From NCBI GenBank assembly GCA_022143435.1, contig GCA_022143435.1_3941.1: a stretch of DNA of 64,000 bases. The stretch is one strand, 5' to 3'. The notes beneath the pieces are model-generated. The model did no database searches, was not told the origin of the DNA, and saw only the letters and a list, made by a program, of their open reading frames with translations. Shown piece by piece: positions 21,562-45,081 of the stretch; position 1 is the stretch's first letter; every line of letters begins with the position of its first letter. The position numbers and the translations under genes are program-made. This DNA is from a phage.

Positions 21562-29559
<7,998 letters not shown>

Positions 29560-29560
<1 letters not shown>

Positions 29561-29799: not shown

Positions 29800-29801
29800 G
29801 T

Positions 29802-30200
29802 TTACTGAGAAGTTAGGCTTTTGAAAATGCTTGCTTCGAAAAAACTTCCGAAGTTTGCCTCCAGCGCAAATGCTAAGTAATCAATAAACTCACCGTAGTT
29901 TGCTTGGAAGTACGTATCAATATTAAGTGGGAAGTCGTCAACAGTTGCCCCTTGAAATAATAAGGTAGCCATCTCTTCAAGGTTAATTTCTTCAATTCTG
30001 TCAAAACAAGCTTCAACAAGTTCTTTAAATGGAACCATTGGAGCTTCTTTCTTACCCTTGTCAGTCAGACTTGATAGCATCTGTGCAAAGGTTGGAACAA
30101 CAATTTTACCCAACTTCATAGACATCTTAATACCATCTCTTGCCCCAAGCAGAACGATATTTACTTTCTTACCATTAATTACTCTAGATTCTGTTTTCAT
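29802..30200 (-). CDS. tail assembly chaperone (putative)
   Basis: Small ORF pair upstream of tape measure. Confidence 0.4.
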   Translation of the reverse strand: MKTESRVINGKKVNIVLLGARDGIKMSMKLGKIVVPTFAQMLSSLTDKGKKEAPMVPFKELVEACFDRIEEINLEEMATLLFQGATVDDFPLNIDTYFQANYGEFIDYLAFALEANFGSFFEASIFKSLTSQ

Positions 30201-30273
30201 TGTGATTCCTTAATACTTTTAAAAGAAACAAAAAAGGGGAAGACCTTTTAAAGTCTCCCCCTTATAGGATTTA

Positions 30274-30720
30274 TTAAACACTTGACGCTGGAATTGTAGA
30301 AGTGTAGTCTAGCTTCTCACAACCAAAAATCCAAGTTTTAGAGTTCTGGTCACGACCAAGTTCAATCTGTGGTAATTCCTGCAACCAAGCATTAATACCA
30401 GTTGCCAGAACAGAGCCTGATGGGTCGTAGATTACGAAGTTAGAAGAGATATCTTCTTCAAGTTCCATATTGTCTTGTTTAGCTTGAATTGCAGAAAGCA
30501 TCTGGTTAGAGAGAGAAGTCTGCATTAACTCAATCTCAATAGTACCTGTCTTGTCTGCATTTCTTGTCAGAGCAACTTGACCACCTGCACCAACAACTGG
30601 TGTCACAAGTGGTGATGTTCTCTGTAGACGCAAGAATGAATCTGGGGCAAAGCCTTCAATGGCAATACCATTCCAGCTACATACAACGTCTTTAGGGGAA
30701 TATTGCTGATACATAGCCAT
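30274..30720 (-). CDS. tail tube protein (putative)
   Basis: 148 aa between putative sheath and chaperones. Confidence 0.5.
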   Translation of the reverse strand: MAMYQQYSPKDVVCSWNGIAIEGFAPDSFLRLQRTSPLVTPVVGAGGQVALTRNADKTGTIEIELMQTSLSNQMLSAIQAKQDNMELEEDISSNFVIYDPSGSVLATGINAWLQELPQIELGRDQNSKTWIFGCEKLDYTSTIPASSV

Positions 30721-30735: not shown

Positions 30736-32088
30736 TTATTCGTAAGCCACTGTACCTTTCAAGTCAACATCCAAGATAGCCCCTGCTAAGACACCTGCGA
30801 AGGTAACATCTTTCAGGATACGTGCTTTCTTGTCTGCTAAAGCAACTTGAGAGGCTTTAGGAACATTAACTGTGTAAGATGACAGGAAGTTTCTGTTGAC
30901 TGCTCTTTGCAGAGAGGTTTCAATGACTTGACGAATACGGGTAATACCAGTATCATCATAAGTAATCTTACCACCCTTCTGGTTAATTAGCAAGTCTCTC
31001 AGAGAAGTTTTCAGGTCTGATTCTAACCAGTCAACACCACGGATGATATCAATCCATTCCCCACCAGAAGTAATCCCTCTACGAACCACTGGAACACCAC
31101 CATCAAGGTCAATAAAGTTACAGTGACGTGCATCTAAAGCAGACTTCTGAATACTTGTCAGAGGTCTCTGATTAGATGGTTGTAGAGAAGCTGCTACGCC
31201 AGTTAGCTGAGCATTACCCCAAGCAATTGACCCTGCATCATATGGAGCACCATAAGCAATGTATGCCATCTCTGGATAATCTTCTGTTGCTGCGTGATGC
31301 CACAAGCAAACTGTGCGAGTATACATACCCTTAGCAAGCTGTGCTGGAACATCGTTTGCACTGGCTAACTCTGTACCTTGCAGTGCTGTTACATCGGAGT
31401 TAGCTGTAAAGAAGATTTTCTTACGAGCCTGAATCTCAGAAGCCATTGCTAAGACAAACTGTTGAGTTCTGTCTTCTGCTGCAATGAAATACCAGTCAGT
31501 AGAATAAGCTTCAATAGCTGCCAGAGCAGTTGATGCTGTATCGGCAGTTGTACTTGCAATATACACAGTCTGTGCTGTGGTTGTTACTTTCACAAAGTCA
31601 TTATCACCAGCTTTGGTAATAATCATTGTGGCAGAGCCATTGCTACCAGTTACATTCACAGAAACCTTATCTTTGATTGTTGGGTCAGCTTCAATCTGTG
31701 TTTTAAACTGTTGCAACACTACCTCAGCAGTGTCTGAATCTTGTGCTGTGTACTGGTATGGTTGAGAAATTCCACCGCCAGCAGCTACAGTAATTGAGTA
31801 GTCTGTACTTTCGGTAACGGCATCAGGAATTGATACAGTGTACTGCATAGCACGTCTACCAATATAAAGCTGAGTTACTTTAGGAGTTTGACTCCAAAGT
31901 TGTTTAGCAGCCTTATATGCAGCAGTAGTCTCATCGAAATCTTCAGCAACTTCAGTTAAGGAAGTGTAGCCACGTACTCTTTCTTCAAAGTTATCTGTTG
32001 AAGCTAAGAATAGTGGTAAACCAAAACCTTCTCTTGTAGTTCCTGCGGTGTTCAATGTAATATCTACATTAACAATTGGATTCCACAT
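30736..32088 (-). CDS. tail sheath protein (putative)
   Basis: 450 aa; canonical sheath-tube-chaperone-tape-measure order. Confidence 0.55.
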   Translation of the reverse strand: MWNPIVNVDITLNTAGTTREGFGLPLFLASTDNFEERVRGYTSLTEVAEDFDETTAAYKAAKQLWSQTPKVTQLYIGRRAMQYTVSIPDAVTESTDYSITVAAGGGISQPYQYTAQDSDTAEVVLQQFKTQIEADPTIKDKVSVNVTGSNGSATMIITKAGDNDFVKVTTTAQTVYIASTTADTASTALAAIEAYSTDWYFIAAEDRTQQFVLAMASEIQARKKIFFTANSDVTALQGTELASANDVPAQLAKGMYTRTVCLWHHAATEDYPEMAYIAYGAPYDAGSIAWGNAQLTGVAASLQPSNQRPLTSIQKSALDARHCNFIDLDGGVPVVRRGITSGGEWIDIIRGVDWLESDLKTSLRDLLINQKGGKITYDDTGITRIRQVIETSLQRAVNRNFLSSYTVNVPKASQVALADKKARILKDVTFAGVLAGAILDVDLKGTVAYE

Positions 32089-32688
32089 TTATTTTACCCC
32101 TTTGGAGTCTACATCTAGATGGATAGTATATTCTGGTGGCTCTTGTCCTTCTTCATAAACCAACTCACCATCAACAATGACACGCTCAATAATACTTCCA
32201 CGTTCATCTTTCAGGACTGAATTTTTTACAAGAGTTACAACAAGAGGCGCAGAATTTTCGAAATCTGTATTGAGATAAGTGTAATCATTTGGGATTGCTC
32301 CAGTATCTAAAACTGTTGCCCCTGTTTCTTCAAGGATTAAATCTCTGATTGAACTCATCTCTAATCGTTGTTTAAGCTCAAGCATAATACTGTGAGCACC
32401 TTTACCATTCACCGTAATTAATACTGGAATCTGAAAAGCAATTCTGTAGCAAACTACATCATCCTCAACAAACTTATCAAGAACCCAACCATAAGGTGTT
32501 GCAGCATCTTGACAATATACGGTAATAAATGGCTGGTCAGGTTTTAAACCTTTGTCATTTGAGTTATCAGAAGGGTAAGCTCTAATTACATTTGGTCTAT
32601 TATTCTTATCACGAGCTAGTCTGTGACCAATAACATCCACTAAGGTTCTAACTAGACCTTTTTCAAGTTCTGCTGTTTCTAACTGCAT
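32089..32688 (-). CDS. head-tail joining/tail completion protein
   Basis: Synteny. Confidence 0.4.
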   Translation of the reverse strand: MQLETAELEKGLVRTLVDVIGHRLARDKNNRPNVIRAYPSDNSNDKGLKPDQPFITVYCQDAATPYGWVLDKFVEDDVVCYRIAFQIPVLITVNGKGAHSIMLELKQRLEMSSIRDLILEETGATVLDTGAIPNDYTYLNTDFENSAPLVVTLVKNSVLKDERGSIIERVIVDGELVYEEGQEPPEYTIHLDVDSKGVK

Positions 32689-33064
32689 TCATTTTATCCC
32701 TTCTAATAATGATATATTCATAATGGGATGTATGGGCTAATTGCTGTGACCAATCCATAGTCATAAATACTTCATACTCATGACCATCAATCATAACAAT
32801 GTCAGACTCATTCCACTCTACATCGTCTGAAGTTCTAAGTTTATATGTAGTGTACAGGATTCTTGTATCGGTCAGTCTAATACCTTCCGGTAAAGCAATC
32901 TGTGTACCGTTCTTTACAGAACCTTTGATATATGGCTGGATATTACCTTTACAGTTAACTTCTACAATATCTTGTGAAGCTACCCAATCACCATCATCAT
33001 TATAATAACCGTCTTCAGAGACTTTACGCTTTACTACAAAGCTGTGTCTGTTTAAGAGCCTCAT
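32663..33064 (-). CDS. head-tail joining protein
   Basis: Synteny. Confidence 0.4.
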   Translation of the reverse strand: MRLLNRHSFVVKRKVSEDGYYNDDGDWVASQDIVEVNCKGNIQPYIKGSVKNGTQIALPEGIRLTDTRILYTTYKLRTSDDVEWNESDIVMIDGHEYEVFMTMDWSQQLAHTSHYEYIIIRRDKMNAVRNSRT

Positions 33065-33543
33065 TTTTTAATACCCTTCTTAGTAGAAATTTTATAAGCA
33101 AGGTTATCCCTTAAGTCACCTGTCTCAACAAGAGGTGCATTAAAGCCTTTTTTCTTGACTGTGGAAGGTGCGTTAGGAGGGAGAATAGCAGAATTACCAA
33201 AACCTCTTTTAATTGCCTTTTGAGCATTCTTTGCAAATGCTTCTAAGGTATCTGAAGGGTCTGTGTTGAGACTGCTAAGTTGCTTATATAGATTCTTCTT
33301 AGCCTGCTCTAACAAGGTCTGTCTGTTTAGCATCATAGTGATTTCAAACAACCTACGATATACTTTACCAGAAGCTGAAGGAACCCCAATAACTTCTTGT
33401 AAATACATTAAAGCAGGATAAGAAAAACCAGAGCTATGTTGACCTTGTTCTTGAAAATACCCAACTTGAGCATTAGCCGTCTGCAAGTTCTTCATAGCCC
33501 CGACTAATTTTGCTCTAGCGGGGTGAATAACCCTTTTAACCAT
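33061..33543 (-). CDS. head-tail joining protein
   Basis: Synteny. Confidence 0.4.
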   Translation of the reverse strand: MVKRVIHPARAKLVGAMKNLQTANAQVGYFQEQGQHSSGFSYPALMYLQEVIGVPSASGKVYRRLFEITMMLNRQTLLEQAKKNLYKQLSSLNTDPSDTLEAFAKNAQKAIKRGFGNSAILPPNAPSTVKKKGFNAPLVETGDLRDNLAYKISTKKGIKK

Positions 33544-33992
33544 TATTCATCTCGCTCGATAATAAATACGCCATTAACACGGTTGCAGTAATCTCTGCCT
33601 TCGTATCTGGCAGCATCACCATATTCTGTGTATTTCTTGACAGAGCAAGGATTTTGACGACGCATGTCAATATCACACTGATTAATACCACCTGCATAGG
33701 GTAGTCCTGAAACAGAGCTTTTAACAAGGTCGTCATAAACAGCTTTCAGAGACTTGAATCTGGAAGAGTTACGTAAATAAACACCACCAACCTTCTCATC
33801 TCCCATCTTGGCTACTTGAAAGAGTAAATATTTAAGAGCTTTGATGGCTGCTTTCTTTTCATCCTTTCCAGATTCTAGATAGAACCACTCTAGCACAGAC
33901 TGTTCAATAAGAATTTCATCGTTATTGGTGTCTGTGCAGAGGATTCTTACTCTATCAAGAGGGTTATTGGCTGGGTCGCCTGTATAACACAT
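33543..33992 (-). CDS. head completion/connector protein
   Basis: Synteny. Confidence 0.4.
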   Translation of the reverse strand: MCYTGDPANNPLDRVRILCTDTNNDEILIEQSVLEWFYLESGKDEKKAAIKALKYLLFQVAKMGDEKVGGVYLRNSSRFKSLKAVYDDLVKSSVSGLPYAGGINQCDIDMRRQNPCSVKKYTEYGDAARYEGRDYCNRVNGVFIIERDE

Positions 33993-34013: not shown

Positions 34014-35117
34014 TTAGCCTTGAGCGTCAGCGCGAACATCTACCAGCAACTGAGGACGAGTACAGTATGGCAGCATGTAAGAGTGAGCTTCAAAGTCAAT
34101 ACCTTCGTCACGGTCTTTTTCGTATTCGAATACGTACAGTTCCTGACCAAGTGTATTTGCGTAACCCATCTTAGGACATGGACCATAAGCCACTTCGAAG
34201 ATGTTGTTTGCTTCACCAAGCATAGAAACGTTAGGGAAAGCGTGTCCTACACCAACCTCTGCACCAGCACCATCAATGCTCACCAGAGTATGAACCTTAC
34301 CACGCTTGTCTTTGAACTTACCGTTGTACTGGACAAACTTAACACCACCGTAGTAGAAGGTGTTCATGTGAGCCTGAACTCCATCAGTACCACCAGTTCT
34401 CAGAGAACCAGTAATCTGTTGCCAAGCCAGTGGGGTCTGCTGTGCAAGATAAGCGTCACGAATCTTAGGATGCTTAACCAGTTTGCTGAAGAATACACGG
34501 TCAACAACTACGTGAATTTCTTCACCGTTGATTACAGTGCCAGTCTTAGCTTCGTCTTCCATGTGCATACGCAGTTCTTCAATAGAAGCGTCGATGTCAG
34601 CATTAGGGTTGTCAAGGTCGAAGTAAACAGTTTTCTTCTCAACGTCGAACTGCTTGTACAGGTCAGCATACAGAGTACCACGAGCATCAACAACTTTACC
34701 CTTCAGAGCTTGCATAAACAGGAACTCACGAGTAATATCGAACTTGGTACGAATCTTCATCAGCTTCTTGGCACGTACTACAGCTTCAGTAGTCAGTTCG
34801 TTTGCAGTGCCTGGCTGACGTACACCCTGAATCTCATCAGGAGTAATGCTTTCAACTTCTTTGAAGTACATCATTGGGAAGCTGATTTGACGAACACGCT
34901 CAGGTGCGCTAGTCTCTGCTTTACGGCTATCACGGTCTACCGCATCAAGCAAGCTAACATCCCAATCAGTCAAGTCCATAAGGAAAGTAGTTTGGGTGAT
35001 TGGTGCTGAACGGAATAGACCTAAGTTGGAAATATACCCATAAGTATTTGGGATAGACTGGACTTCACCAGTCAGGTCAGCAAGGAAAAATCTGCTTTTT
35101 TCAGAATTAGTCAACAT
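34014..35117 (-). CDS. major capsid protein (HK97 fold, lambda gpE-like arrangement)
   Basis: 367 aa following protease and a small decoration-like gene. Confidence 0.7.
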   Translation of the reverse strand: MLTNSEKSRFFLADLTGEVQSIPNTYGYISNLGLFRSAPITQTTFLMDLTDWDVSLLDAVDRDSRKAETSAPERVRQISFPMMYFKEVESITPDEIQGVRQPGTANELTTEAVVRAKKLMKIRTKFDITREFLFMQALKGKVVDARGTLYADLYKQFDVEKKTVYFDLDNPNADIDASIEELRMHMEDEAKTGTVINGEEIHVVVDRVFFSKLVKHPKIRDAYLAQQTPLAWQQITGSLRTGGTDGVQAHMNTFYYGGVKFVQYNGKFKDKRGKVHTLVSIDGAGAEVGVGHAFPNVSMLGEANNIFEVAYGPCPKMGYANTLGQELYVFEYEKDRDEGIDFEAHSYMLPYCTRPQLLVDVRADAQG

Positions 35118-35150
35118 TGTAAAATTCTCCAGAATGTCTTATTATTGTTA

Positions 35151-35528
35151 TTACAGGCCAGTTGGTACGAAATCAATACCTTTAGCAGCCAGAGCTGTCT
35201 TGACTGCATCAGCATCAACACCTGATTCAAGAGTAAGCAGGTCTTTTAGTTCTGCGTCACGGTAAATACCAACAACTTTCAACTGACCGTGGTAAGACAG
35301 TTGTAGGTCTGCGTAAAAGTTAACGATACATACAGAATCAGCCTGAGCTTCTTCCCCTGCTGCAACTTTAGTACCATCTGCTTTCAGGACTTCACCTACA
35401 CGGTATTCTGTTGAAGCAACTGGGGTGTACTCTTTACGAGAGTGGCCTGTTGGGGTAACCTGTTCCCAAAGAATGATATCATTCAGAGGTTCTCTTTTAC
35501 CTAACTTAGTAAAACCTTGATATGCCAT
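35151..35528 (-). CDS. head decoration-like protein
   Basis: 125 aa between protease/scaffold and capsid genes (gpD-like position). Confidence 0.4.
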   Translation of the reverse strand: MAYQGFTKLGKREPLNDIILWEQVTPTGHSRKEYTPVASTEYRVGEVLKADGTKVAAGEEAQADSVCIVNFYADLQLSYHGQLKVVGIYRDAELKDLLTLESGVDADAVKTALAAKGIDFVPTGL

Positions 35529-35539
35529 TATTGTGTTCC

Positions 35540-36886
35540 TTATTTGATAAGAGATTTTAGAGCATTCTGGAGAGCCAGTTTGCGTTGTTCAGCGGTGTCT
35601 TCGGAAGCATTCTTAGCTGGTTCTTTTTCTTCTTCAACCAAATCAGCTTCGCCGTCATTACCCATTTCTTCCATAGCGTTGGAGTGTTCAAGAACAGCAC
35701 CAGCAGTTTCTTTCAGCTTGGTAATTTCTGATTCTTTTTCTTCCATTGCGGAAGCATGGGACGCGATAGTTTCATTAAGTTTCTGGTTAGCACCTTCCAT
35801 AGCATTCATAAACAGAACACTCAGAGGGTTATCAAGACCAGCACCTAAAATAGTCGTTGCAGCTTCTTTTGCATCAAATCCAAAAGCTTCAGCAGAAGCA
35901 GAAATCTTATTAGTCAAATCTGACAAAGCAGCTTCCTGTTCTTTAGCTTTCATTTGAGCAACCTGAAGACGCAAAGCTTCTAGTTCTTGCTTTTCTTGTT
36001 CAGTCATTTCTTCACCTGAATTGTTAACGTTTAAACTTACAGGAGCCTCTTCAGAACCTTGTAAGTAATTTAAGAAATCATCTTGAGACATGATTGAGTT
36101 AATTAAACCAAGTTCAAGAGCTTCCTGAGCAGAATAAACATTCGCCTCAGTATTCTTTACAGCTTCTTCAGAGAGATTACGAGATTCGGCTACAAAACCT
36201 GTAAAGGTTGCGTAGGTATCATTAATTCTCTTTTGAAGTCTTTCTTTGCTTTCTTCTGAGAGTGCTTGGAATGGTGAACCCATACCTTTAAACTCACCAG
36301 CTTTGATGACGTTAATTGTTACGCCATTCTTTTCAAATGCCTTAGTTAATTCCTGATGAACCATGATTACACCAATAGAACCAACATCTGCATCTGGTGA
36401 TGCAATAATTTCTTCAGCAGAAGATGCAAGAGCGTATGCAGCGGAACAAGCGAACTCATCTACATAAGCAATAATTTTCTTTTGGCCTCTTGAAGCCATA
36501 ATGTGACGTGCTAATTCAAAGCAACCTGAAGCTTCACCACCACCAGAATCGATGTGCAGAACAATAGTCTTGATTGACTCATCTGCTAAAGCTTCGTCAA
36601 AGCCTCTACGCAAACCTTCATAAGAACTTAATCCACCTGTACACATTGCATCAATGAATGTCATACGATGGGTTAAACCACCCATAATAGGAATAATAGC
36701 AATGTCATCTTTCACTTTTAAAAGACTTCTTGCTTCACCTTTGGGTTTATCAAAGTTTACTGCTGCTTGGACATCACCCAGCAATCTGTTATTCACATAA
36801 GTTGCTGCTGAGTGAGCTAATGATTCAGTGGCTAGTAAAGGTTGGTTGAATAATCTATCAGCAAGTCTGAAGATATTCGAACTCAT
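35540..36886 (-). CDS. prohead protease (ClpP/SppA S49 family) with C-terminal scaffold-like domain
   Basis: Motifs IAIIPIMGGL, LHIDSGGGEASG; Glu/Ala/Lys-rich coiled-coil C-terminus. Confidence 0.75.
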   Translation of the reverse strand: MSSNIFRLADRLFNQPLLATESLAHSAATYVNNRLLGDVQAAVNFDKPKGEARSLLKVKDDIAIIPIMGGLTHRMTFIDAMCTGGLSSYEGLRRGFDEALADESIKTIVLHIDSGGGEASGCFELARHIMASRGQKKIIAYVDEFACSAAYALASSAEEIIASPDADVGSIGVIMVHQELTKAFEKNGVTINVIKAGEFKGMGSPFQALSEESKERLQKRINDTYATFTGFVAESRNLSEEAVKNTEANVYSAQEALELGLINSIMSQDDFLNYLQGSEEAPVSLNVNNSGEEMTEQEKQELEALRLQVAQMKAKEQEAALSDLTNKISASAEAFGFDAKEAATTILGAGLDNPLSVLFMNAMEGANQKLNETIASHASAMEEKESEITKLKETAGAVLEHSNAMEEMGNDGEADLVEEEKEPAKNASEDTAEQRKLALQNALKSLIK

Positions 36887-36897
36887 TTTTACTCACC

Positions 36898-37230
36898 CTA
36901 TTTGTTTAAATCTACAGAGACTGAAGAGATAACATAGATACCTTCTTCAGCAAAGAATTGAGGTTTGCTAAGAGCACCAGTTGCCACGCATTTATCGTTA
37001 GCATCCCACAAGCTATAGTGTGAGACCGTTGCAGAAGCTGGAACAGTAATGTTAACTGTGTCTTCTGAGGCAATTAAGCCATTATCCGGTTCAGAAAAAT
37101 AAATAGCCACTGGCTGAGTAACCTTATTTGCTGTAGGGTCTGCCGTTGGGTCTACATTGTGTAAAATAATAGTCGTTGGGGTTAGCGTGGCGAGGATTTT
37201 ATTCTTACCATCAATAGTTAATGTTCCCAT
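36898..37230 (-). CDS. hypothetical head-module protein
   Basis: 110-aa ORF. Confidence 0.4.
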   Translation of the reverse strand: MGTLTIDGKNKILATLTPTTIILHNVDPTADPTANKVTQPVAIYFSEPDNGLIASEDTVNITVPASATVSHYSLWDANDKCVATGALSKPQFFAEEGIYVISSVSVDLNK

Positions 37231-37730
37231 TAATTAAACCTTACTTTTTGTTTAAGGACTGTTGAATGGTTACCAGATTCATCTACCACATTTACAATCA
37301 TATCATATACTTTGCCTTTGACAAGTACTTTGTAATCATTTTGTGAAAAAATGTATTCAAGTCTGTTTGTTTCTTTATTAACTGTCATTGGAGATTGAAA
37401 TGCAGTGTCGAGGGTAATGAAAGCGGCTTCAATGCTATTAACATTGATACGTTTATTCTCGCAGTTATATAACTTTACACCCAAAAGGCATGAACTGTCA
37501 AATGGAATTTTAACAATTTCACTACAATTTCCTAAAATAAACGGTTTTCCACTCATTGGTGCATCAAGTAACCTGCAAATAGTGAAAACGTCAGAGGTTC
37601 CACCATCACTTACATAACCTGAAAGGCTGACCCTTGAGCCAGCCTCTACAGATAATTTGTCAGTGATAATAAGAACACCTCTATACGAATGCACTCGTGT
37701 AGCATTTGAAATAGAGATAACTTCAGCCAT
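37230..37730 (-). CDS. hypothetical head-module protein
   Basis: 166-aa ORF. Confidence 0.4.
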   Translation of the reverse strand: MAEVISISNATRVHSYRGVLIITDKLSVEAGSRVSLSGYVSDGGTSDVFTICRLLDAPMSGKPFILGNCSEIVKIPFDSSCLLGVKLYNCENKRINVNSIEAAFITLDTAFQSPMTVNKETNRLEYIFSQNDYKVLVKGKVYDMIVNVVDESGNHSTVLKQKVRFN

Positions 37731-39196
37731 TATTTATTTGCCTTATTTGCTGTGCTTGGGTCTTTCGCTGAAGGTGTCTTTGCAGTACCTTCTCCAGCGG
37801 TCTTATAACCATCTCCTGAACGGCTTTGACTATTTGGAGAAAGCTTTTCAGATACTGGCTGAGACTCATCAGCAGGAGGAAGACCAATATGCTCTCTAAG
37901 CTTGTTAGATAGCTCTTTGTCAACTTCCAAAGCACCTACTGCAACAGTCTTCTGGATATAAGAACCAATTGCTTCAAGGTCTGGAGTTTCGATATCATCA
38001 TATGTGATTTGTACATGTTCTTCATCATCCCACATATTAAGAGCATAAGTCTGTGCAACTAAATCACGGTTAATTACGTTCTTAATTTGCTTCAGCAGAA
38101 TATCCACTGACATTGCTAGTAAGCTTGTCTTAGAATCTGCAAGAGAGAATGAACCATATTTTGACTGACCCATAGCAAGAACATCTGACATAAATGCCAT
38201 CATAATCTGCTTGGAATATCTGTCAATAATAGAACCTGTATCGTATGCTTTAGCACCCTGTCTAGATACTAATGAGAACTCGAAAATATCCTCTTTAGTA
38301 TCTGGGTCGATATATCTAGGCCAGATTAAACCTGCTCTATCATTAGCAATCATATCGTTAACAACAGTTTTGCAGTATTGTACGAAAGCTTTCTTTTCAG
38401 GTTCTGCATTTTCATCCAGATAATCTGGTGGTAAACCAATCTTTGGCATACCTACCAAGTCTCTTGAAACACCAACGGCTTCGTACTCTTCAATCTGAAC
38501 TTTATACTTCCACGGTACATAGGCATTAAGTAATGGTGAACGACCTTCTGGGTTTCCATATTCATCATCATACTTAAACAGCATGAATTTAGCTCGTGGA
38601 AGTTTTCTTGTTAGTGGCCTTTCTCCGAGATTAATTGCCCCAGCAATATGTGAAACATTTCTCAGATTCTGTCTAACACCAGTAACTTTTCTAAAGTCTT
38701 CGTCAAAATACCACTTATCAAGTGTTGATTGGTTTCTGATTGGTAATTTAGCCCATCCAATCAGACCATCATCAAATTTTGACTGGTACTTTCCTTTTTT
38801 ACCCTGTCGCTTCTTATAAACTTTCTCGTTAACACAGAACCCATAAGTGCAGAATGACATTACAGAATTAATAAAATCTGCCCAATCATGCTCCATGTCA
38901 TCCATTAAAGAATTAAAGAAGTCTGCTCTTTCAAGCATTTTAGGGTCTTGCTCTTTTCCCTTTGGAGGTACGAATCTCCAGTTGACTTTTCTGACAAACA
39001 TCTTAATAATATTTACAGATGCTGCTACAGCAGGGTCACGCATCATTAATTGGAAAGTTTTAATACTTTCAGGGAACCTTAGTGCCTGACGAGGTTCTTC
39101 ATAGATTCTTCCATTCTTAACCTTCAGACCCAAAGAACCTACTTCACCCATTCTAAATGGTGGTAAGCTTTCTTGTGTTTCTGTAATATCTGCCAT
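37730..39196 (-). CDS. portal protein (putative)
   Basis: About 488 aa directly downstream of terminase; ATG 39196 with AGGTGAG RBS. Confidence 0.65.
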   Translation of the reverse strand: MADITETQESLPPFRMGEVGSLGLKVKNGRIYEEPRQALRFPESIKTFQLMMRDPAVAASVNIIKMFVRKVNWRFVPPKGKEQDPKMLERADFFNSLMDDMEHDWADFINSVMSFCTYGFCVNEKVYKKRQGKKGKYQSKFDDGLIGWAKLPIRNQSTLDKWYFDEDFRKVTGVRQNLRNVSHIAGAINLGERPLTRKLPRAKFMLFKYDDEYGNPEGRSPLLNAYVPWKYKVQIEEYEAVGVSRDLVGMPKIGLPPDYLDENAEPEKKAFVQYCKTVVNDMIANDRAGLIWPRYIDPDTKEDIFEFSLVSRQGAKAYDTGSIIDRYSKQIMMAFMSDVLAMGQSKYGSFSLADSKTSLLAMSVDILLKQIKNVINRDLVAQTYALNMWDDEEHVQITYDDIETPDLEAIGSYIQKTVAVGALEVDKELSNKLREHIGLPPADESQPVSEKLSPNSQSRSGDGYKTAGEGTAKTPSAKDPSTANKANK

Positions 39197-39212
39197 TCTT
39201 CTCACCTAGCTA

Positions 39213-40814
39213 TCAACGTCTAAGCCCCTCATATGGGTTTCCTCTCACTAAATCTGTGTGAGCACCCATTGATGGTGGCTTGAATAATTTAACTTCGTTA
39301 AGACTGTTGAAAGCATCACTGGTAGCATCCACTTGGTCATCTTTAGTTTTACCGTCACCACAAAAGCCTTCAAGTTCTTGAAAGTAAGCTTCATTCCAAC
39401 TACCTCTCAAGACTTTTACAAGTCCAGCTTCAGAAGCAGCAGAAAATCCCGCAAAGCGGGTAACTTTATCTTTATTTGTTGGTTTGGCTCTTGCTCGATA
39501 ACCTTTCTCGGCAAGTTTCCTGATGAGGGATGTTGCGTAGGATTTACCAGCAGCGCCTGGGTCTTGAGGGATAAAAATACCAGTTCGCTTACCGTCACTT
39601 TCAGCAGTCAAATTAATTTGTGTTTCGACTCCAGAGGGTCTATCTCTAAATCTTACTACATCAATGATATAATAGCAACCGTCTTTTTTAGATTTACCCA
39701 TCTTAACACCTGCTGTCCAGTCTGGATTAGGGTTAATCTCAGATGGTAAAGTTGCTGCTAAGTCCCATGCTCTAACATCAAATACATCTTCTGGGAGTGA
39801 ATCAACAATTTCACACCATTGTCTTTGCCAATAGTTTGAACCTTCTGCACGAGCCTTCCAGTTACCGAAACGAAGTCTTGCAACGTTTACAGGAGTGTTG
39901 TTTTCCAACTTACCACGGTACTTAGGCTCTAAGAAGTCAAGGATTGGGTTATCATCAATCGTACCAGAGATGAAGGTGTATGTTTGAGGAATCTCAAGAG
40001 GGAACATTTCAAGAATCTTGTCTCTCTCCCAATCAGAAACCATCACACCATCATTCATTACATACCAACGAATACGACCACACTTTTCAGGGTCTGGATA
40101 ACCTTCTTCGTCTAAGAAAGGTTCTACCCAATCGTAAATAAAGTGGTCTCTATCTGGGTTCATGGAAATCTTCATGTATGAATCGCCTTCAGCACCAGAA
40201 CGTAGACGGGTTTGTAGGTATGAAATCTGTGAAGCAGAGAAGTGTGTACCTTCGTCAAAGTAAATAGCTGAGTATTCAATACCCTGATGACCTTCAGCGT
40301 GCTTTTCAAGTTCTAGGTAGGTAAACTTGATAGTTGCCCCAGAAGGAAATGTGATAGTCATTTTCTGCTCATGAGGAATCCCACCAAACTTACCAAATAG
40401 TTTCTTTGCAGCAGGCCATAAACCACCTTGTAACTGTGTTGTATTTCGACGGAAATATACAGCATTATAGTTAGGGTCTTCAATAAATCTTAAAGAGTCC
40501 ATTAACAATGCGGCAGTCTTACCAGCACCAGCAGCACCACCATAGAGAACCAAGTCAGCATTAGTATTTAAAAAGACCTCTTGAGAACCCGGTTGAGGGG
40601 CTACATAGTTCTTATCAGTCATCAATTTAAAGATGAGGCGAACTTGGTCTGGTGTGTATCTTAATAAAGTCAGAATTTGAGTTGGAAGGAATTTAGAGGG
40701 GTCTTTACCGAATGATTTAATAATTTCTTTTACTTCATCAGAAAGCCCCAACTCTCCAGCTAGGACTTTCCTAACATCTTCCACTCGCTTCTGCTTAATA
40801 GCATTTAAGTCCAT
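39213..40814 (-). CDS. terminase large subunit
   Basis: Walker A VLYGGAAGAGKT; ATG 40814 with GGAGGTG RBS. Confidence 0.9.
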   Translation of the reverse strand: MDLNAIKQKRVEDVRKVLAGELGLSDEVKEIIKSFGKDPSKFLPTQILTLLRYTPDQVRLIFKLMTDKNYVAPQPGSQEVFLNTNADLVLYGGAAGAGKTAALLMDSLRFIEDPNYNAVYFRRNTTQLQGGLWPAAKKLFGKFGGIPHEQKMTITFPSGATIKFTYLELEKHAEGHQGIEYSAIYFDEGTHFSASQISYLQTRLRSGAEGDSYMKISMNPDRDHFIYDWVEPFLDEEGYPDPEKCGRIRWYVMNDGVMVSDWERDKILEMFPLEIPQTYTFISGTIDDNPILDFLEPKYRGKLENNTPVNVARLRFGNWKARAEGSNYWQRQWCEIVDSLPEDVFDVRAWDLAATLPSEINPNPDWTAGVKMGKSKKDGCYYIIDVVRFRDRPSGVETQINLTAESDGKRTGIFIPQDPGAAGKSYATSLIRKLAEKGYRARAKPTNKDKVTRFAGFSAASEAGLVKVLRGSWNEAYFQELEGFCGDGKTKDDQVDATSDAFNSLNEVKLFKPPSMGAHTDLVRGNPYEGLRR

Positions 40815-41258: not shown

Positions 41259-41334
41259 TGGAGAATCCGAAGGGACTCGAACCCTTATAAACCTGTTTTG
41301 CAGACAGGCACATATCCATTTCTGTCACGGATTC
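41259..41334 (-). tRNA. tRNA-Cys (GCA)
   Basis: Manual cloverleaf; 7-bp acceptor stem; CCA encoded. Confidence 0.65.
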
Positions 41335-41339
41335 AAAAT

Positions 41340-41432
41340 TGGAGGAAGATACCAGACTTGAACTGGTACACCGATTTCTCAGCTACTGGCAGTTTAGCAA
41401 ACTGCTCCCTTACCTTTTAGGGTTAATCTTCC
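41340..41432 (-). tRNA. tRNA-Ser (GCT), class II
   Basis: Long variable arm; anticodon loop TTGCTAA. Confidence 0.6.
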
Positions 41433-41433
41433 A

Positions 41434-42168
41434 TTATTTCTGTAATGCGCTCTTCATTTCTGGTGTTGCAATAGTGTCAATTACACCAGTTTTACAGGCA
41501 TCATCAAACCAGTCTGGTAAGATACCTGCTAAGAACCCATTGATATTCGTTTTAAGGTACTCTGCAATAAGGGCAGCTTCTTCTTCAATCATCTGCACAA
41601 CTTCATCTGCATAAGCTGTAATCTTTGAGATACCTTCATTAATCTTACTGACAGCTTGGTTAGCTAAATCAGAAACAGTATCAAGACCCTTGTCAATAGC
41701 GTCTTGTAAGTCACTTAATACATTGTTAACACTCTCTAGTGTACTGTTAATCATATCAATAGCTTTTTGACCATATTCTGTAGCAACACCCATAATACCA
41801 CTGAACGGTGTACAACCAACTTGTTCTCCTGCTGCACCCATAACATTGGAATATCCCTTTGCTACCTGCATACGTGATGAAAACTCATCAATAGATTTTT
41901 GACCGTAGTCTGTCAGGGTCTTAGTAGTTGCTGTAGTGCTTGTAAGGCTTGTTGTAAAGCTGTTTAGAAGGACTGTTGTAAGTCCAGCAGCAACAAGTTT
42001 CTCCTGCATTGTAGGGTCTGTTACAGAACTAATAGAGCTTACAAGTGATGTAGAAGCAGCTACGGTTCCACCGAGAACTGCTGCACCAGTAATAAGTGGG
42101 TTAGAAAACCCTTTACCGGTTTTTAAGAGATTAAAAATCTCCTTACCTTGTTCTGTCATCTCTTTCAT
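41434..42168 (-). CDS. hypothetical protein embedded in tRNA array
   Basis: Start moved to ATG 42168 (AGGTG upstream) because the track start overlaps tRNA-Phe. Confidence 0.4.
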   Translation of the reverse strand: MKEMTEQGKEIFNLLKTGKGFSNPLITGAAVLGGTVAASTSLVSSISSVTDPTMQEKLVAAGLTTVLLNSFTTSLTSTTATTKTLTDYGQKSIDEFSSRMQVAKGYSNVMGAAGEQVGCTPFSGIMGVATEYGQKAIDMINSTLESVNNVLSDLQDAIDKGLDTVSDLANQAVSKINEGISKITAYADEVVQMIEEEAALIAEYLKTNINGFLAGILPDWFDDACKTGVIDTIATPEMKSALQK

Positions 42169-42184
42169 TAAGCACCTTTGAAAT

Positions 42185-42260
42185 TGGTAGTCCAGTGGGA
42201 TTTGAACCCTCTTCTCATGTTTTTCAGACACGCGCTTTAACCATATAAGCTACTTGGACT
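42185..42260 (-). tRNA. tRNA-Phe (GAA)
   Basis: Manual cloverleaf; anticodon loop CTGAAAA. Confidence 0.6.
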
Positions 42261-42266
42261 ATAAAT

Positions 42267-42342
42267 TGGGGTGACCTACGGGATTTGAACCCGTATAGAC
42301 CATGTTCACAGCATGGGTCATTACCATTTATGATAAGGCCAC
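42267..42342 (-). tRNA. tRNA-His (GTG)
   Basis: Anticodon loop CTGTGAA. Confidence 0.6.
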
Positions 42343-42377
42343 ATTTAAGGACTCTCGTAAGAACCCTTAGAAGTGGC

Positions 42378-42448
42378 AGCGGCATAAGGATTTGAACCTT
42401 AATAGGACAGCTTCAGAGACTGTTGCATTGCCAGTTATGCTATACCGC
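42378..42448 (-). tRNA. tRNA-Gln (CTG)
   Basis: Anticodon loop CTCTGAA; CCA not encoded. Confidence 0.5.
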
Positions 42449-42454
42449 TAAATT

Positions 42455-42533
42455 TGGTACTCCATATCGGATTCGAACCGATACATAACACAGATTTTAA
42501 GTCTGGCCTCTCTGCCAATTGGAGTAATGGAGC
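42455..42533 (-). tRNA. tRNA with anticodon TAA (Leu by anticodon, short variable loop)
   Basis: Good acceptor and T arms; 4-bp anticodon stem; class-I-like length. Confidence 0.45.
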
Positions 42534-42535
42534 AT

Positions 42536-42611
42536 TGGCGGGGGATGTTGGAATTGAACCAACTTCTTCGATTTCAAAGACCGAGGTTTTAACCTTGTAA
42601 ACTAATCCCCT
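42536..42611 (-). tRNA. tRNA-Gln (TTG)
   Basis: Anticodon loop CTTTGAA. Confidence 0.5.
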
Positions 42612-42619
42612 TTAAATCT

Positions 42620-43177
42620 TTACTTTCTTAGTGGATGAATAAAGAATGCCAACATAACTCTTTCCCTTGAGAATGCTCTTTCTTCTGGGACAACACTTTT
42701 TAGCTTCCACCCAATATAAATTCTCCAGTAGAACTGTTTACCAAAGATTTTAATTGATGGGATAAAAGCGAATAATCCCCAAGCATTGCTGTTCCACATT
42801 AGGAGATAACCTGTCTGATTATCTTCAGGGTTAGAACTTACGTTGATATTACCTTTCCACTTAGTAACATCTTTTACATCTCTTCCTAATACATGGTAAG
42901 AGAAGTTATAAGCTTTGTTTCTCCAGAGCCATCCGACTCTTTGCATGTAGACACCTAGTTTACCAATCCATCTAATATTAGCCCATCTTTTAACGTGACC
43001 TTCATCACCATCAATTGGGTTGTCATATGTCTCCATCCATCTGAATCCGAAAGGTAAGTGTCCTTTCTTCTCACTGTAGAATGGAACTACAAAAGGTGCT
43101 AAGATAACTGCTAAGATTGCTGCAAATGGCTCTAACAAAGCTAAGAAAATCCATGAAGCATACTTCAAATATCTCAT
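42620..43177 (-). CDS. membrane protein embedded in tRNA array
   Basis: N-terminal hydrophobic segment WIFLALLEPFAAILAVILAPFVVPF; Trp-rich. Confidence 0.45.
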   Translation of the reverse strand: MRYLKYASWIFLALLEPFAAILAVILAPFVVPFYSEKKGHLPFGFRWMETYDNPIDGDEGHVKRWANIRWIGKLGVYMQRVGWLWRNKAYNFSYHVLGRDVKDVTKWKGNINVSSNPEDNQTGYLLMWNSNAWGLFAFIPSIKIFGKQFYWRIYIGWKLKSVVPEERAFSRERVMLAFFIHPLRK

Positions 43178-43196
43178 CTAAATAGCCTCTTTAAAT

Positions 43197-43272
43197 TGGC
43201 GCAGGATAAGGGATTCGAACCCCTATTAACAGCTTCGTAGACTGTTGCTCTATCCATTTGAACTAATCCTGC
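43197..43272 (-). tRNA. tRNA-Arg (ACG)
   Basis: Anticodon loop CTACGAA. Confidence 0.65.
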
Positions 43273-43277
43273 AAAAT

Positions 43278-43355
43278 TGGTGTTCCAAGACGGATTCGAA
43301 CCGTCACTAGTACAAGGTTTGAGCTTGCATCCTCTGCCAATTGGGATACTGGAAC
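43278..43355 (-). tRNA. tRNA with anticodon CAA (Leu by anticodon, short variable loop)
   Basis: 5-bp anticodon stem, loop CTCAAAC. Confidence 0.45.
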
Positions 43356-43356
43356 A

Positions 43357-43431
43357 TGGTACTCACTAAAGGACTTGAACCTTTTTCTTCATCTTGTAAG
43401 GGTGGTGTTTTACCATATAAACTAAGCGAGT
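43357..43431 (-). tRNA. tRNA-like, anticodon TAC (Val?), weak anticodon stem
   Basis: Good acceptor/D/T arms; anticodon stem has two C-A mismatches. Confidence 0.4.
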
Positions 43432-43527
43432 GTGAAAGAGGTCTGAAGTTGTGCCGCTAACTCAACTCCGTGGAATTTGTTACGGTCTTCAGTTGACTCA
43501 AAGCGGTCTTTCACTTGACCTCTAAAT
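43432..43527 (-). ncRNA. tRNA-sized structured element, not a canonical cloverleaf
   Basis: Perfect 7-bp terminal stem AGAGGTC/GACCTCT enclosing about 73 nt; no standard T-loop. Confidence 0.25.
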
Positions 43528-43603
43528 TGGTGCTCCCACAAGGATTCGAACCCTGATAAGTTGCTTACAAGGCAACCGTAATAGCCAATTATACGATAGG
43601 AGC
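43528..43603 (-). tRNA. tRNA-Thr (TGT)
   Basis: Anticodon loop CTTGTAA. Confidence 0.6.
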
Positions 43604-43610
43604 ATTAATT

Positions 43611-43685
43611 TGGAGCATCCAGAGGGAATCGAACCCTCAACCTCAGTTTGGAAGACTGTAATTTTCCCGTTTAAACTATGGATGC
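43611..43685 (-). tRNA. tRNA-Gly (TCC)
   Basis: Anticodon loop CTTCCAA. Confidence 0.6.
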
Positions 43686-43691
43686 ACTAAT

Positions 43692-43767
43692 TGGTGGAGT
43701 CACTGAGAATTGAACTCAGTTCCCAAGTTTGCAAAACTCGAATTTTAACCATATAAACTATGACCCC
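43692..43767 (-). tRNA. tRNA-Ala (TGC)
   Basis: Anticodon loop TTTGCAA. Confidence 0.6.
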
Positions 43768-43773
43768 ATTTTT

Positions 43774-43849
43774 TGGTACAGGTGGAGGGAATTGAACCCA
43801 TCGTCTTACTGATTAAGAGTCAGCCGCATAACCATTTTGCTACACCTGC
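43774..43849 (-). tRNA. tRNA-Lys (CTT)
   Basis: Anticodon loop CTCTTAA; register slightly ambiguous. Confidence 0.45.
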
Positions 43850-43856
43850 ATTAATT

Positions 43857-43934
43857 TGGTAGGAGACAAGGGATTCGAACCCTCAAACACCAACTTCTAA
43901 GGATGGTAGGTTTACCAATTACCGTCAATCTCCC
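43857..43934 (-). tRNA. tRNA with anticodon TAG (Leu by anticodon)
   Basis: Anticodon loop CTTAGAA, 4/5 stem pairs. Confidence 0.4.
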
Positions 43935-44190
43935 ATTAAATCTTTTTAGAGAACTTCTAAGAACCTAAGCAACAAGGTTCCACAACAAGCTGTAATAACC
44001 TTAGAAGCCCTCTAAAAAGACCTAAAAAGGTCTTTGCATAGTCTTGTTTAATCCGGTGACTAGAACCTTTGGAGAGCTTGATATTATCTCTTCTCCGTGA
44101 CACCTACTAGGTGCTTTACTGTGCGTGTACGACAATACACTAGGGATACCAAAGCAACATCCGAATGAAGCTTGGCTTTAAATCTTATTA

Positions 44191-44269
44191 GGCGGTAAGT
44201 AAAGGAGTCGAACCCTCACCGTATCTCTACAGTGGCAACTGTTTTCAAGACAGTTTGGCTACCATTAGC
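44191..44269 (-). tRNA. tRNA-Ser (TGA), class II
   Basis: Anticodon stem ACTGT/ACAGT, loop CTTGAAA, long variable arm. Confidence 0.55.
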
Positions 44270-44293
44270 CGCTACCTACCCCTAATAAGACTT

Positions 44294-44376
44294 TGGCATG
44301 GGACGGAGGAGTTGAACCCCTTTGAAACGGTTTTGGAGGCCGTTGCTCATGCCTTAGAGTCTTAACATCGCCCCAT
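44294..44376 (-). tRNA. tRNA-like with Trp-type anticodon loop CTCCAAA (CCA)
   Basis: Anticodon arm matches E. coli tRNA-Trp loop; D region about 7 nt too long for a standard cloverleaf. Confidence 0.35.
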
Positions 44377-44518
44377 ACTATAATTCGAAGCTTACCGTAT
44401 TATCTCAACACTGTAAAGCCCCTTCTCAGATTATTTACATGTTCTGGAAAACATGAGATACAGACCACCTCCCTACAGGAAGACCCGCTTAGGTCGTCTA
44501 AGTAATCTGCTAACTAAT

Positions 44519-44595
44519 TGGTACACCCTACAGGATTCGAACCTGTAACTAACGATTTAGAAGACCGTTGCTCTATCCAATTGAACTAAGGGTGC
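44519..44595 (-). tRNA. tRNA-Arg (TCT)
   Basis: Anticodon loop CTTCTAA. Confidence 0.6.
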
Positions 44596-44798
44596 ATTAA
44601 TCTTTAAAGACTCTCTTAGAAAGCCCTTAAAGATGCCCACCTTATTAATCATACCGTGGGCTAGTACGCCAAATTCTTTGATGAGGGATTGGAAGACCTC
44701 ACTGGTGTTTAGCCTATCAAGCTACTGCCAGAAAAACATTGTCGTTTGCATTTATTTTAAATTTGCAAAATAGACGCTACGCAACGAAAACTAAGGTT

Positions 44799-44827
44799 AC
44801 TATAAAGTAGTCACATCTCAATGTCAA
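44799..44827 (-). promoter_or_regulatory. sigma70-like promoter inside tRNA array (TTGACA-N17-TATAGT)
   Basis: Read on minus strand; would drive the tRNAs at lower coordinates. Confidence 0.5.
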
Positions 44828-44842
44828 CAACTTTATTGAAAT

Positions 44843-44917
44843 TGGTTGTAGGTGAGGGTATCGAACCCTCTTCTAACGGTTATCAGCCGTTTGCATTACC
44901 ATTTATGCTAACCCACA
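44843..44917 (-). tRNA. tRNA-Ile (GAT)
   Basis: Anticodon loop CTGATAA. Confidence 0.65.
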
Positions 44918-44919
44918 AT

Positions 44920-44996
44920 TGGAGGTTCAGATGGGAATCGAACCCACATTCATAGGGCTTATGAGACCCTTGCATTACCTTATCTGCGACTGAACC
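44920..44996 (-). tRNA. tRNA-Met (CAT)
   Basis: Anticodon loop CTCATAA. Confidence 0.6.
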
Positions 44997-45000
44997 ATTT

Positions 45001-45076
45001 TGGTAGAAGTGGAGGGATTCGAACCCATCGCCTGTCAGATTAAAAGTCTGCCGCATCACCATTCTGCTACACTTCC
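45001..45076 (-). tRNA. tRNA-Lys (TTT)
   Basis: Anticodon loop CTTTTAA. Confidence 0.55.
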
Positions 45077-45081
45077 ATTAA

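Follow-up and report, generated by a model that had tools for sequence, protein, structure and literature searches.

Felix O1 is a classical phage for the typing and biocontrol of Salmonella. The virions of two related phages have been described at near-atomic resolution. These are Bas63 (Escherichia phage JohannRWettstein; PDB 9ncf and 9mt4; Sci Adv 2025, PMC12609058) and Sf14, which like Sf13 is a Shigella phage of the genus Mooglevirus within the Ounavirinae (9c2d, 9c39; Commun Biol 2025, PMC11821841). Both capsids have T=9 symmetry and two decoration proteins, one of which (Bas63 gp7, Sf14 gp33) forms trimers at the quasi-threefold axes and has the lambda gpD fold (PMC12609058, PMC11821841). 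In Bas63 a collar protein carries whiskers on an N-terminal 'rope', and collar and whisker are structurally homologous to the neck appendage of podophage GP4. The Bas63 tail is a contractile helical sheath-tube assembly with a four-domain sheath protein of 450 residues (gp13), and in its gene order the major capsid protein (gp8) is followed by the adaptor (gp9) (PMC12609058).

We analyzed a stretch of 64,000 nucleotides of phage DNA, here referred to as the window (GenBank assembly GCA_022143435.1, contig GCA_022143435.1_3941.1). Its closest nucleotide matches are classified as Felixounavirus. The part from 30000 to 41000 matched 303 phage records; nucleotide identity was 95-99% for 215 of these, and the best match reached 98.4% at 100% query coverage. 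The parts 1-25000 and 40000-64000 were 93-95% identical, at 84-95% coverage, to KhF1, KhF2 and other Felixounaviruses. The ICTV genus threshold is approximately 70% nucleotide identity over most of the genome, and the identity found here was high over most of the window. By this whole-genome comparison, which a sequence-only reading of the same DNA had proposed as a check, the window is assigned to a Felixounavirus phage (Ounavirinae, Felix O1-like myophage). The region in question is almost certainly the Felixounavirus head-and-neck morphogenesis block, an old and vertically inherited architecture situated just upstream of the contractile-tail block. Every gene described below had near-identical homologues in hundreds of phage records, and the genes of the head block are therefore real and not chance ORFs.

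The terminase, portal, S49 protease, decoration-like and 367-aa capsid genes proposed by the sequence-only reading were all present at their positions on the minus strand, on which all features given below lie unless stated otherwise. The large terminase (39213..40814, 533 aa) belongs to the T4-type Terminase_6 family according to its Pfam matches (Terminase_6N 2.2e-43, Terminase_6C 4.4e-33). It matched PHROG 979 (1e-233) and was 99.8% identical to TerL of phage VpaE1, in which the ATG at 40814 is the annotated start as well. The adjacent portal (37730..39196, 488 aa) is of the Mu gp29 / HK97-like type (Portal_Mu 1.6e-26). Residues 4-491 of a longer ORF starting with GTG aligned with residues 1-488 of PDB 9mt4_B, 'Portal protein', with 1113.8 bits, which places the true start at the ATG at 39196. 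The search for a small terminase gave two small proteins. A 66-aa ORF upstream of TerL matched only a PHROG family without an assigned function and gave no NCBIfam match, and a 123-aa DUF5681 protein had tblastn relatives in Ounavirinae only, none of them annotated. The Felix O1 genome paper did not identify a TerS either.

Two small genes are located between portal and protease. The sequence-only reading took them for extra genes inserted into a head module, but their PDB matches identify them as neck collar and whisker and not as head genes. The 166-aa protein (37230..37730), which comprises an Ig-like domain and the N-terminal 'rope' bearing the whiskers, matched PDB 9mt4_G, 'Collar protein', with an E value of 5e-105 and Sf14 gp127 with 8e-101. 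The homologue of this protein is named a second 'whisker' in the Sf14 paper (PMC11821841), whereas the Bas63 paper names it collar (PMC12609058). The 110-aa protein (36898..37230) matched 9mt4_I, the Bas63 gp5 whisker (E 1.5e-69). It is probably related to the podophage GP4 fiber-1, a homology seen in the structure of the near-identical Bas63 whisker, and it showed a weak Pfam match to this fibre (Gp80, PF23140, GP4 fiber I; 2e-4) of 22.1 bits, under the 27-bit cut-off. The 'rope' of GP4 is a protein of its own and holds five fibre dimers, whereas the Bas63 type has it as the N-terminal part of the collar, bearing two whisker dimers.

The major capsid protein (34014..35117, 367 aa, HK97 fold) matched the whole profile of the lambda gpE family Phage_cap_E (PF03864, 2.6e-78) as well as PDB 9ncf_A (E 3.9e-246) and 9c2d_A (E 2.7e-233). 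The neighbouring 125-aa protein (35151..35528), which the earlier reading called decoration-like, matched 9ncf_J, 'Head stabilization/decoration protein' (E 1.9e-74); that call agrees with the lambda gpD fold of its homologues. We refer to this probable beta-tulip cement protein as Dec. Another head decoration protein, the Hoc-like Hex-Dec (276 aa), is encoded on the plus strand (49829..50659), approximately 9 kb past the terminase end of the structural block and adjoining the endolysin gene. Its residues 1-236 aligned with 9ncf_S (E 6.5e-233), and it contains an Ig_3 domain (9.8e-18).

The head maturation protease (35540..36886, 448 aa) is an S49 protease of the gpC type. Its Peptidase_S49 domain spans residues 134-275 (5.4e-39), it aligned with lambda gpC over 254 aa at 33% identity (BLASTP, E 2e-38) and it also matched SppA structures (E 3e-20). 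When ten proteins of the head-neck block and its neighbourhood were scanned with NCBIfam, only SppA-type matches were obtained, all for the protease. The scaffold-like tail described by the sequence-only reading is indeed present; it comprises approximately 165 aa (residues ~283-448) with 33 D/E as compared to 16 K/R. In a single-sequence AlphaFold2 model of low confidence (mean pLDDT 43) this tail was all helix. The model gives weak support for a helical tail only. No other scaffold gene is present in the head block, so that the scaffold function presumably lies in the 3' part of the protease gene, as with Nu3. We infer that the acidic helical tail is most likely the scaffold and is removed on maturation. 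The Sf14 homologue of the protease is not listed among the virion proteins (PMC11821841). A tblastn search with the tail alone gave Ounavirinae only and no informative distant homologue. In the literature we found no demonstration of a scaffold role, a question which the structural papers do not discuss.

In phage lambda (C/Nu3) and phage Mu (I/Z) one gene yields two products. Within the protease gene an in-frame ATG at codon 294 (36007) opens a candidate nested Nu3-like scaffold ORF of 155 aa (35540..36007). It is preceded by the sequence cAGGTGaagaa. The methionine and an AGGT/GAGGA motif 7-8 nt upstream are shared by five Ounavirinae lineages, which nevertheless differ in the amino acids encoded upstream and in codon phase. 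Conservation at the nucleotide level suggests a real ribosome-binding site before codon 294. A methionine at the position aligned to the lambda Nu3 start (gpC codon 239) was absent from the protease. Taken together, we regard it as a tentative possibility, with somewhat less in its favour than against it, that the gene yields both the S49 protease and a separate acidic helical scaffold of ~155 aa from codon 294. If true, the internal-start product would be the as yet unassigned scaffold of the Felix O1 group, with a start unlike that of lambda Nu3 in position.

Four smaller genes follow the capsid gene. A 149-aa protein (33543..33992), 100% identical to its VpaE1 homologue, corresponds by order to the head-to-tail adaptor Bas63 gp9. 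The next one (33061..33543, 160 aa) matched PHROG 222, 'tail completion or Neck1' (8.6e-40). It is also conserved in Erwinia phage M7 and Pectobacterium phage Arno18. The solved virions do not contain it, and a PDB search gave no relative. A 133-aa protein (32663..33064; PHROG 939, 'head protein', 7.5e-14) would by order be the head completion protein Bas63 gp11, and a 199-aa protein (32089..32688; PHROG 7975, 'tail terminator', 3.6e-5) the tail terminator Bas63 gp12. Gene order and weak PHROG matches suggest these adaptor, head completion and terminator roles.

The contractile tail sheath (30736..32088, 450 aa) matched 9mt4_Q (E 7e-290), 9c39_H (E 8e-260), the sheaths of phi92 (gp130), phiTE and Pam3, and PHROG 205, 'tail sheath' (7e-123). 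It is encoded next to the tail tube (30274..30720, 148 aa), which matched 9mt4_P, 'Tube protein' (E 2.9e-96). A consensus scan detected a strong putative terminator hairpin (30234..30263), with a 13-bp stem followed by a T run, in the gap that separates the tube gene from the chaperone genes. Two ORFs of 132 and 79 aa (29560..30200) matched the PHROG category 'tail assembly chaperone'. A candidate -1 slippery site, T_TTT_TTC, lies in the correct phase at 29844-29838, close to where the first ORF ends. From there the -1 frame continues without a stop into the 79-aa ORF, with a predicted fusion of 213 aa. An in-phase heptamer with an open -1 frame is consistent with a putative frameshift of the G/GT type. 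Next to them lie the tape measure gene (27350..29560, 736 aa), which is Bas63 gp17 by order and whose homologue is annotated in VpaE1 and SeKF_63, and a region (17935..27350) which by the VpaE1 annotation encodes the baseplate (tube initiator, spacer, hub, puncture apparatus, wedges and fibre platform) and two tail fibres. In size, a 489-aa protein corresponds to wedge 2 of Bas63 and a 285-aa protein to wedge 1. The order sheath, tube, chaperones, tape measure and baseplate, formerly proposed from synteny, is borne out, with sheath and tube now tied to solved chains.

All replication genes named before were found as well, i.e. DHFR (3.5e-22), thymidylate synthase (3e-73), dNMP kinase (DNMK, 8.6e-22), a family-A polymerase (DNA_pol_A, 5.7e-15) and a primase-helicase with Toprim and DnaB_C within one 663-aa protein. 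The phage is tRNA-rich: ARAGORN predicted 26 tRNA genes (41259..46168) interspersed with small ORFs. VpaE1 and SeKF_63 carry this array too. For Felix O1, 22 tRNA genes were reported.

Existing annotations offer other readings of several of these genes. In Pfam the 450-aa protein falls under DUF3383 only and the 148-aa protein under a 'structural protein' family, and older annotations label both 'structural protein', so that a non-contractile siphovirus tail could be read from them. However, the former is along its whole length near-identical to the Bas63 and Sf14 sheath chain and is related to the phi92, phiTE and Pam3 sheaths, and the latter is near-identical to the Bas63 tube chain. Together with the contractile tail of Bas63 (PMC12609058) these matches refute a siphovirus, the probability of which we consider negligible, and the tail is identified as contractile. 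Similarly, Dec falls into PHROG 4146, named 'tail protease', a name which RefSeq and pharokka-style annotations repeat. By these names, a tail protease would be the product of the 125-aa gene and a 'tail protein' that of the 276-aa gene, and the head would be without decoration proteins. Here again no protease family match was found for the 125-aa protein (Pfam, NCBIfam), the cryo-EM models of two independent studies have both proteins on the capsid surface (PMC12609058, PMC11821841), and the Bas63 paper explicitly marks both tail names, 'tail protease' included, as annotation errors (PMC12609058). The match to the Dec chain and the capsid location of its homologues refute the tail protease, which has practically no chance of being correct. 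The database errors persist, with collar, whisker, adaptor and terminator still 'hypothetical', and pointing them out is the practical use of this analysis.

A further alternative concerns the origin of the block. The sequence-only reading described a mosaic with a head in the lambda B-C/Nu3-D-E order, and a recent chimera could have arisen if an unrelated myovirus had acquired such a lambda-type cassette by horizontal transfer. In favour of this, the protease clearly resembles gpC, the capsid protein belongs to the gpE family, the Dec homologues have the gpD beta-tulip fold, protease, Dec and capsid follow one another as lambda C, D and E do, and the Sf14 authors invoke multiple horizontal transfer events (PMC11821841). 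However, when the five head proteins were compared by BLASTP with lambda A, B, C, D and E, only the protease matched. Nothing significant was found for the terminase against gpA or the portal against gpB, and neither Dec against gpD nor, pairwise, the capsid protein against gpE was significant. The lambda link of the latter two rests on the Pfam profile and the published fold comparison. Of the proposed lambda order the trio of protease, Dec and capsid holds; terminase and portal are from other families (Terminase_6N/6C, T4-type, and Portal_Mu, Mu/HK97-type) and not of the gpA and gpB type. We have therefore dropped the term lambda-like module for the block as a whole. Moreover, S49 protease homologues occur in many unrelated phage groups, which makes the trio a widespread head type and not specifically that of lambda. 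Neither of the two outcomes named beforehand as fatal to the sequence-only reading, a 450-aa protein other than a sheath or a head unrelated to the lambda/HK97 set, was encountered.

Gene order and composition also speak against a recent transfer. The block runs TerL, portal, collar, whisker, protease, Dec, MCP, adaptor and on to sheath and tube, and is gene-for-gene collinear with VpaE1 at 92-100% amino acid identity. It is collinear across four other Ounavirinae lineages; all eleven head-neck genes have collinear homologues (34-72% identity) in M7 and Arno18, and the same local order was found in a Hafnia phage and in Sf13. For capsid protein, portal, sheath and tube, the next-closest solved relatives rank alike in all four cases, with Pakpunavirus P7-1 followed by phi92 or phiTE, so that the distant relatives of the head proteins, myophages throughout, are also those of the tail proteins. 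The G+C content is even (0.36-0.43) and no compositional break occurs across the window. On the basis of even composition, collinearity and congruent distant relatives we reject a recent horizontal acquisition, which is very improbable. The gene combination is best read from these comparisons as an old, vertically inherited lineage architecture. 'Mosaic' is appropriate only in a deep evolutionary sense, which is already in the literature, and a 'lambda-like head on a contractile tail' is no oddity but a common and ancient myophage architecture.

We propose that the T4-type large terminase would package DNA via a dodecameric portal of the Mu/HK97 type into a T=9 shell, whose HK97-fold capsid protein belongs by sequence to the lambda gpE family. 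The gpC-like S49 protease would mature the shell from inside, and its acidic helical tail would most likely act as scaffold before being removed. Trimers of the 125-aa beta-tulip protein would cement the quasi-threefold positions like lambda gpD, and the Hoc-like protein encoded elsewhere would sit on some hexamers. The collar gene product would form a 12-fold ring around the connector, with the whiskers threaded on its N-terminal 'rope'. For near-identical proteins these virion roles have been shown by cryo-EM, and they are transferred here to a phage known from its genes.

The phage type, the gene order, the contractile tail and nearly all structural gene roles are already published, as are near-atomic structures of near-identical proteins, which limits the weight of our results as a discovery. 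Two details look unpublished, the candidate internal scaffold start in the protease gene and the -1 frameshift site in the chaperone genes.

In comparison with named systems, the window shares genus and gene order with Bas63 and Felix O1, and it agrees with Felixounavirus in its tRNA array and replication genes. The capsid protein, Dec, portal, collar, whisker, sheath and tube chains of Bas63 match the window almost residue for residue. Hex-Dec differs, with 276 aa here as compared to 460 aa in Bas63, which points to fewer Ig-like domains; variation of this sort has been described for the genus (PMC12609058). Sf14 and Sf13 carry the same module, including T=9 and two decoration proteins, and the Sf13 protease is 96% identical to that of the window in its protease domain and 84% in its tail.

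More distantly, Pakpunavirus P7-1, phi92 and Pectobacterium phage phiTE have detectable homologues of capsid protein, portal, sheath and tube (E 1e-5 to 1e-116). The phi92 numbering (gp120 portal, 123, 124 capsid, 130 sheath, 131 tube) suggests the same order as in the window, and phi92 gp123 gave a marginal match to Dec (E 0.24). The phiTE capsid is T=13. With the A-W-B-C/Nu3-D-E block of lambda the window has in common the order of protease, small cement protein (probably a trimeric beta-tulip protein here as well) and Phage_cap_E capsid protein. It differs in the terminase and portal families and in the two neck genes inserted between portal and protease. The lambda capsid is T=7, whereas the Bas63 and Sf14 homologues build T=9 with an extra Hoc-like decoration protein, and lambda lacks the contractile tail type of this phage.

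The segment 34014-40814 carries seven tightly packed genes on the minus strand. These encode the large terminase (39213-40814, Pfam Terminase_6N/6C), the portal protein (37730-39196, Portal_Mu), two small proteins of 166 and 110 aa, an S49 peptidase of 448 aa (Peptidase_S49), a 125-aa protein here referred to as Dec, and a capsid protein of 367 aa (Phage_cap_E). Pfam and PHROG scans gave E-values from 1e-26 to 1e-78 for these families. Downstream in the direction of transcription follow four neck genes, the genes of a 450-aa and a 148-aa protein, two chaperone ORFs, a tape measure gene (736 aa) and the baseplate and fibre genes. The terminase, portal, peptidase, 125-aa and capsid genes noticed in the sequence-only reading were all confirmed, as were the richness in tRNAs (26 genes) and a replication side with DHFR, thymidylate synthase, a T4/T5-type dNMP kinase, a family-A polymerase and a Toprim+DnaB primase-helicase. 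An ATP-dependent ligase gene was present in the window as well.

A total of 303 phage records matched bases 30000-41000; identity was 95-99% in 215 of these, and the top match was Escherichia phage ASO1B (98.4% over the full length). The flanks shared 93-95% identity with KhF1, KhF2 and their relatives. The records matched are assigned to Felixounavirus in the subfamily Ounavirinae, and judged by its sequence the phage is a member of the Felix O1 group; the type genome of this group is 86 kb long, with 39% G+C and 22 tRNAs. About 98% identity to this type of enterobacterial phage was likewise seen in two records with the names 'Campylobacter phage A132' and 'Staphylococcus phage SA1' (collection match MG065664.1); these were probably given the wrong host or came from contaminated samples.

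Whole virions of two Ounavirinae have been solved by cryo-EM, namely Bas63 (Felixounavirus; PMC12609058) and Sf14 (Mooglevirus; PMC11821841), and the proteins of the window matched the deposited virion chains nearly perfectly. In the Bas63 entries 9ncf and 9mt4, the capsid protein corresponded to 9ncf_A (E 3.9e-246), Dec to 9ncf_J, 'Head stabilization/decoration protein' (E 1.9e-74), and the portal to 9mt4_B (1113.8 bits). In both virions an HK97-fold protein forms a T=9 capsid, Dec trimers with the beta-tulip fold of lambda gpD cover the quasi-threefold positions, and a monomeric Hoc-like protein, encoded outside the structural module, sits on some hexamers (PMC12609058, PMC11821841). The Hoc-like protein of the window was found by its PDB match at 49829-50659 (plus strand), adjoining the endolysin gene; in relatives it is annotated as 'tail protein'. 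At 276 aa it is shorter than its counterparts in Bas63 (460 aa) and Sf14 (372 aa), with the capsid-binding domain kept and fewer Ig-like domains. Variation of this kind was already described in the Bas63 paper (PMC12609058).

The 450-aa and 148-aa proteins matched 9mt4_Q (E 7e-290) and 9mt4_P, 'Tube protein' (E 2.9e-96), respectively. Since these chains form the contractile sheath-tube helix of the Bas63 tail (PMC12609058), the contractile tail proposed earlier from synteny was assigned correctly. Between the tube and chaperone genes a strong terminator-like hairpin is located (30234-30263, minus strand; 13-bp stem followed by a T run), which fits an expression of sheath and tube above that of the downstream tail genes. 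The two chaperone ORFs (29560-30200, minus strand), annotated in database records as separate genes, are linked by an in-phase canonical -1 slippery heptamer T_TTT_TTC at 29844-29838, from which the -1 frame is open into the second ORF. The predicted frameshift product would be a 213-aa G/GT-like chaperone fusion.

The two extra small genes between portal and protease turned out to be neck genes rather than head genes, since the 166-aa protein matched 9mt4_G, 'Collar protein' (E 5e-105), and the 110-aa protein the whisker chain 9mt4_I (E 1.5e-69). In Bas63 an N-terminal 'rope' of the collar holds whisker protein dimers, an arrangement homologous to the podophage GP4 fibre-1 complex (PMC12609058); the whisker of the window showed a weak Pfam match to the GP4 fibre family. 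The collar homologue of Pectobacterium phage Arno18 (3193-4128 of its locus L004) has 311 aa compared with 166 aa here. Since the alignment covers only about 160 residues, the 'rope' may be longer in Arno18 or a domain may have been added, and the whiskers of that phage may hence differ. All Ounavirinae examined also share a conserved 160-aa protein encoded among their neck genes (33061-33543 of the window, minus strand; PHROG 'tail completion or Neck1'). It had no counterpart in the solved Bas63 and Sf14 virions, was missing from the Sf14 virion protein list and may be an assembly factor.

A small terminase subunit was not recognisable in the window, and likewise it was not recognised in the 2010 Felix O1 paper. 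Two candidates, both on the minus strand and without an informative homologue, are a 66-aa ORF just upstream of the large terminase gene (40836-41036) and, beyond the tRNA array, a 123-aa DUF5681 protein (47832-48203). The 26-gene array itself encloses two conserved ORFs, DUF7217 (41434-42231) and DUF7338 (42620-43177), and is directly adjoined by a 471-aa vWA/DUF2828/DUF7788 protein (46334-47749, minus strand; PHROG 'RNA-binding protein'). The family-A polymerase gene (6576-9305), in some relatives annotated as two pieces, is intact; its 3' end is overlapped by a homing-endonuclease-like ORF with HNH_3 and AP2 domains (9277-9843, plus strand).

The head block had been read as part of a mosaic. 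However, the eleven genes from terminase to tail terminator were collinear and homologous in the annotated relative VpaE1 (92-100% amino acid identity) and in Erwinia phage M7 and Arno18 (34-72%), and the local order whisker-protease-Dec-capsid recurred in a Hafnia phage and in Sf13. For capsid protein, portal, sheath and tube alike, the next-closest solved relatives were the myophages P7-1, phi92 and phiTE, with the Pakpunavirus P7-1 always ranked first. The respective E-values were 4.9e-37, 1.2e-10 and 5.9e-13 for the capsid protein, 9.5e-116, 1.8e-49 and 1.6e-35 for the portal, 6.8e-48, 5.2e-17 and 2.5e-15 for the sheath, and 1.1e-13, 2e-12 and 2.5e-5 for the tube. Such matching relatives argue that head and tail have travelled together for a long time, and the G+C content was even over the whole window. 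On these comparisons the architecture is not mosaic with respect to this genome specifically; it is an old architecture of the lineage and already published. Deep mosaicism of modules among tailed phages is textbook knowledge. It is real and discussed in the Bas63 and Sf14 structure papers (PMC12609058, PMC11821841).

No scaffold gene was found between the portal and capsid genes. The S49 domain of the protease is followed by a tail of about 165 residues, which is acidic (33 D/E versus 16 K/R), Ala/Glu-rich and helical in a low-confidence predicted structure. Compared with the catalytic domain it has diverged much faster (27-41% versus 56-58% identity to three distant relatives), and the Sf14 homologue of the protease is missing from the virion protein list (PMC11821841). 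From these features we infer a putative scaffolding domain, as in lambda C/Nu3. The lambda Nu3 start had no counterpart at the aligned position of the protease. An in-frame ATG at codon 294, after cAGGTGaagaa, opens a candidate nested ORF (35540-36007, minus strand). This Met is kept in five Ounavirinae lineages together with an AGGT or GAGGA motif that lies 7-8 nt before it and is conserved at the nucleotide level despite varying upstream amino acids and codon phase of the motif, which suggests a possible nested Nu3-like scaffold product of ~155 aa. Such a product is not mentioned in the Bas63 and Sf14 structure papers or the 2010 Felix O1 paper.

The head proteins were also compared one by one by BLASTP with those of the lambda head region. 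Portal and terminase gave nothing significant against gpB and gpA; their Pfam families are of the Mu type and the T4 type, respectively, the portal type having been noted in 2010 for Felix O1. The protease aligned with gpC over 254 residues at 33% identity (E 2e-38), a clear resemblance. The capsid protein shares its Pfam family with gpE but the pairwise match was not significant, and Dec resembles gpD in fold only, according to the published structure (PMC11821841). The lambda-like head module of the sequence-only reading is therefore limited to the protease, Dec and capsid trio and the order of these three genes.
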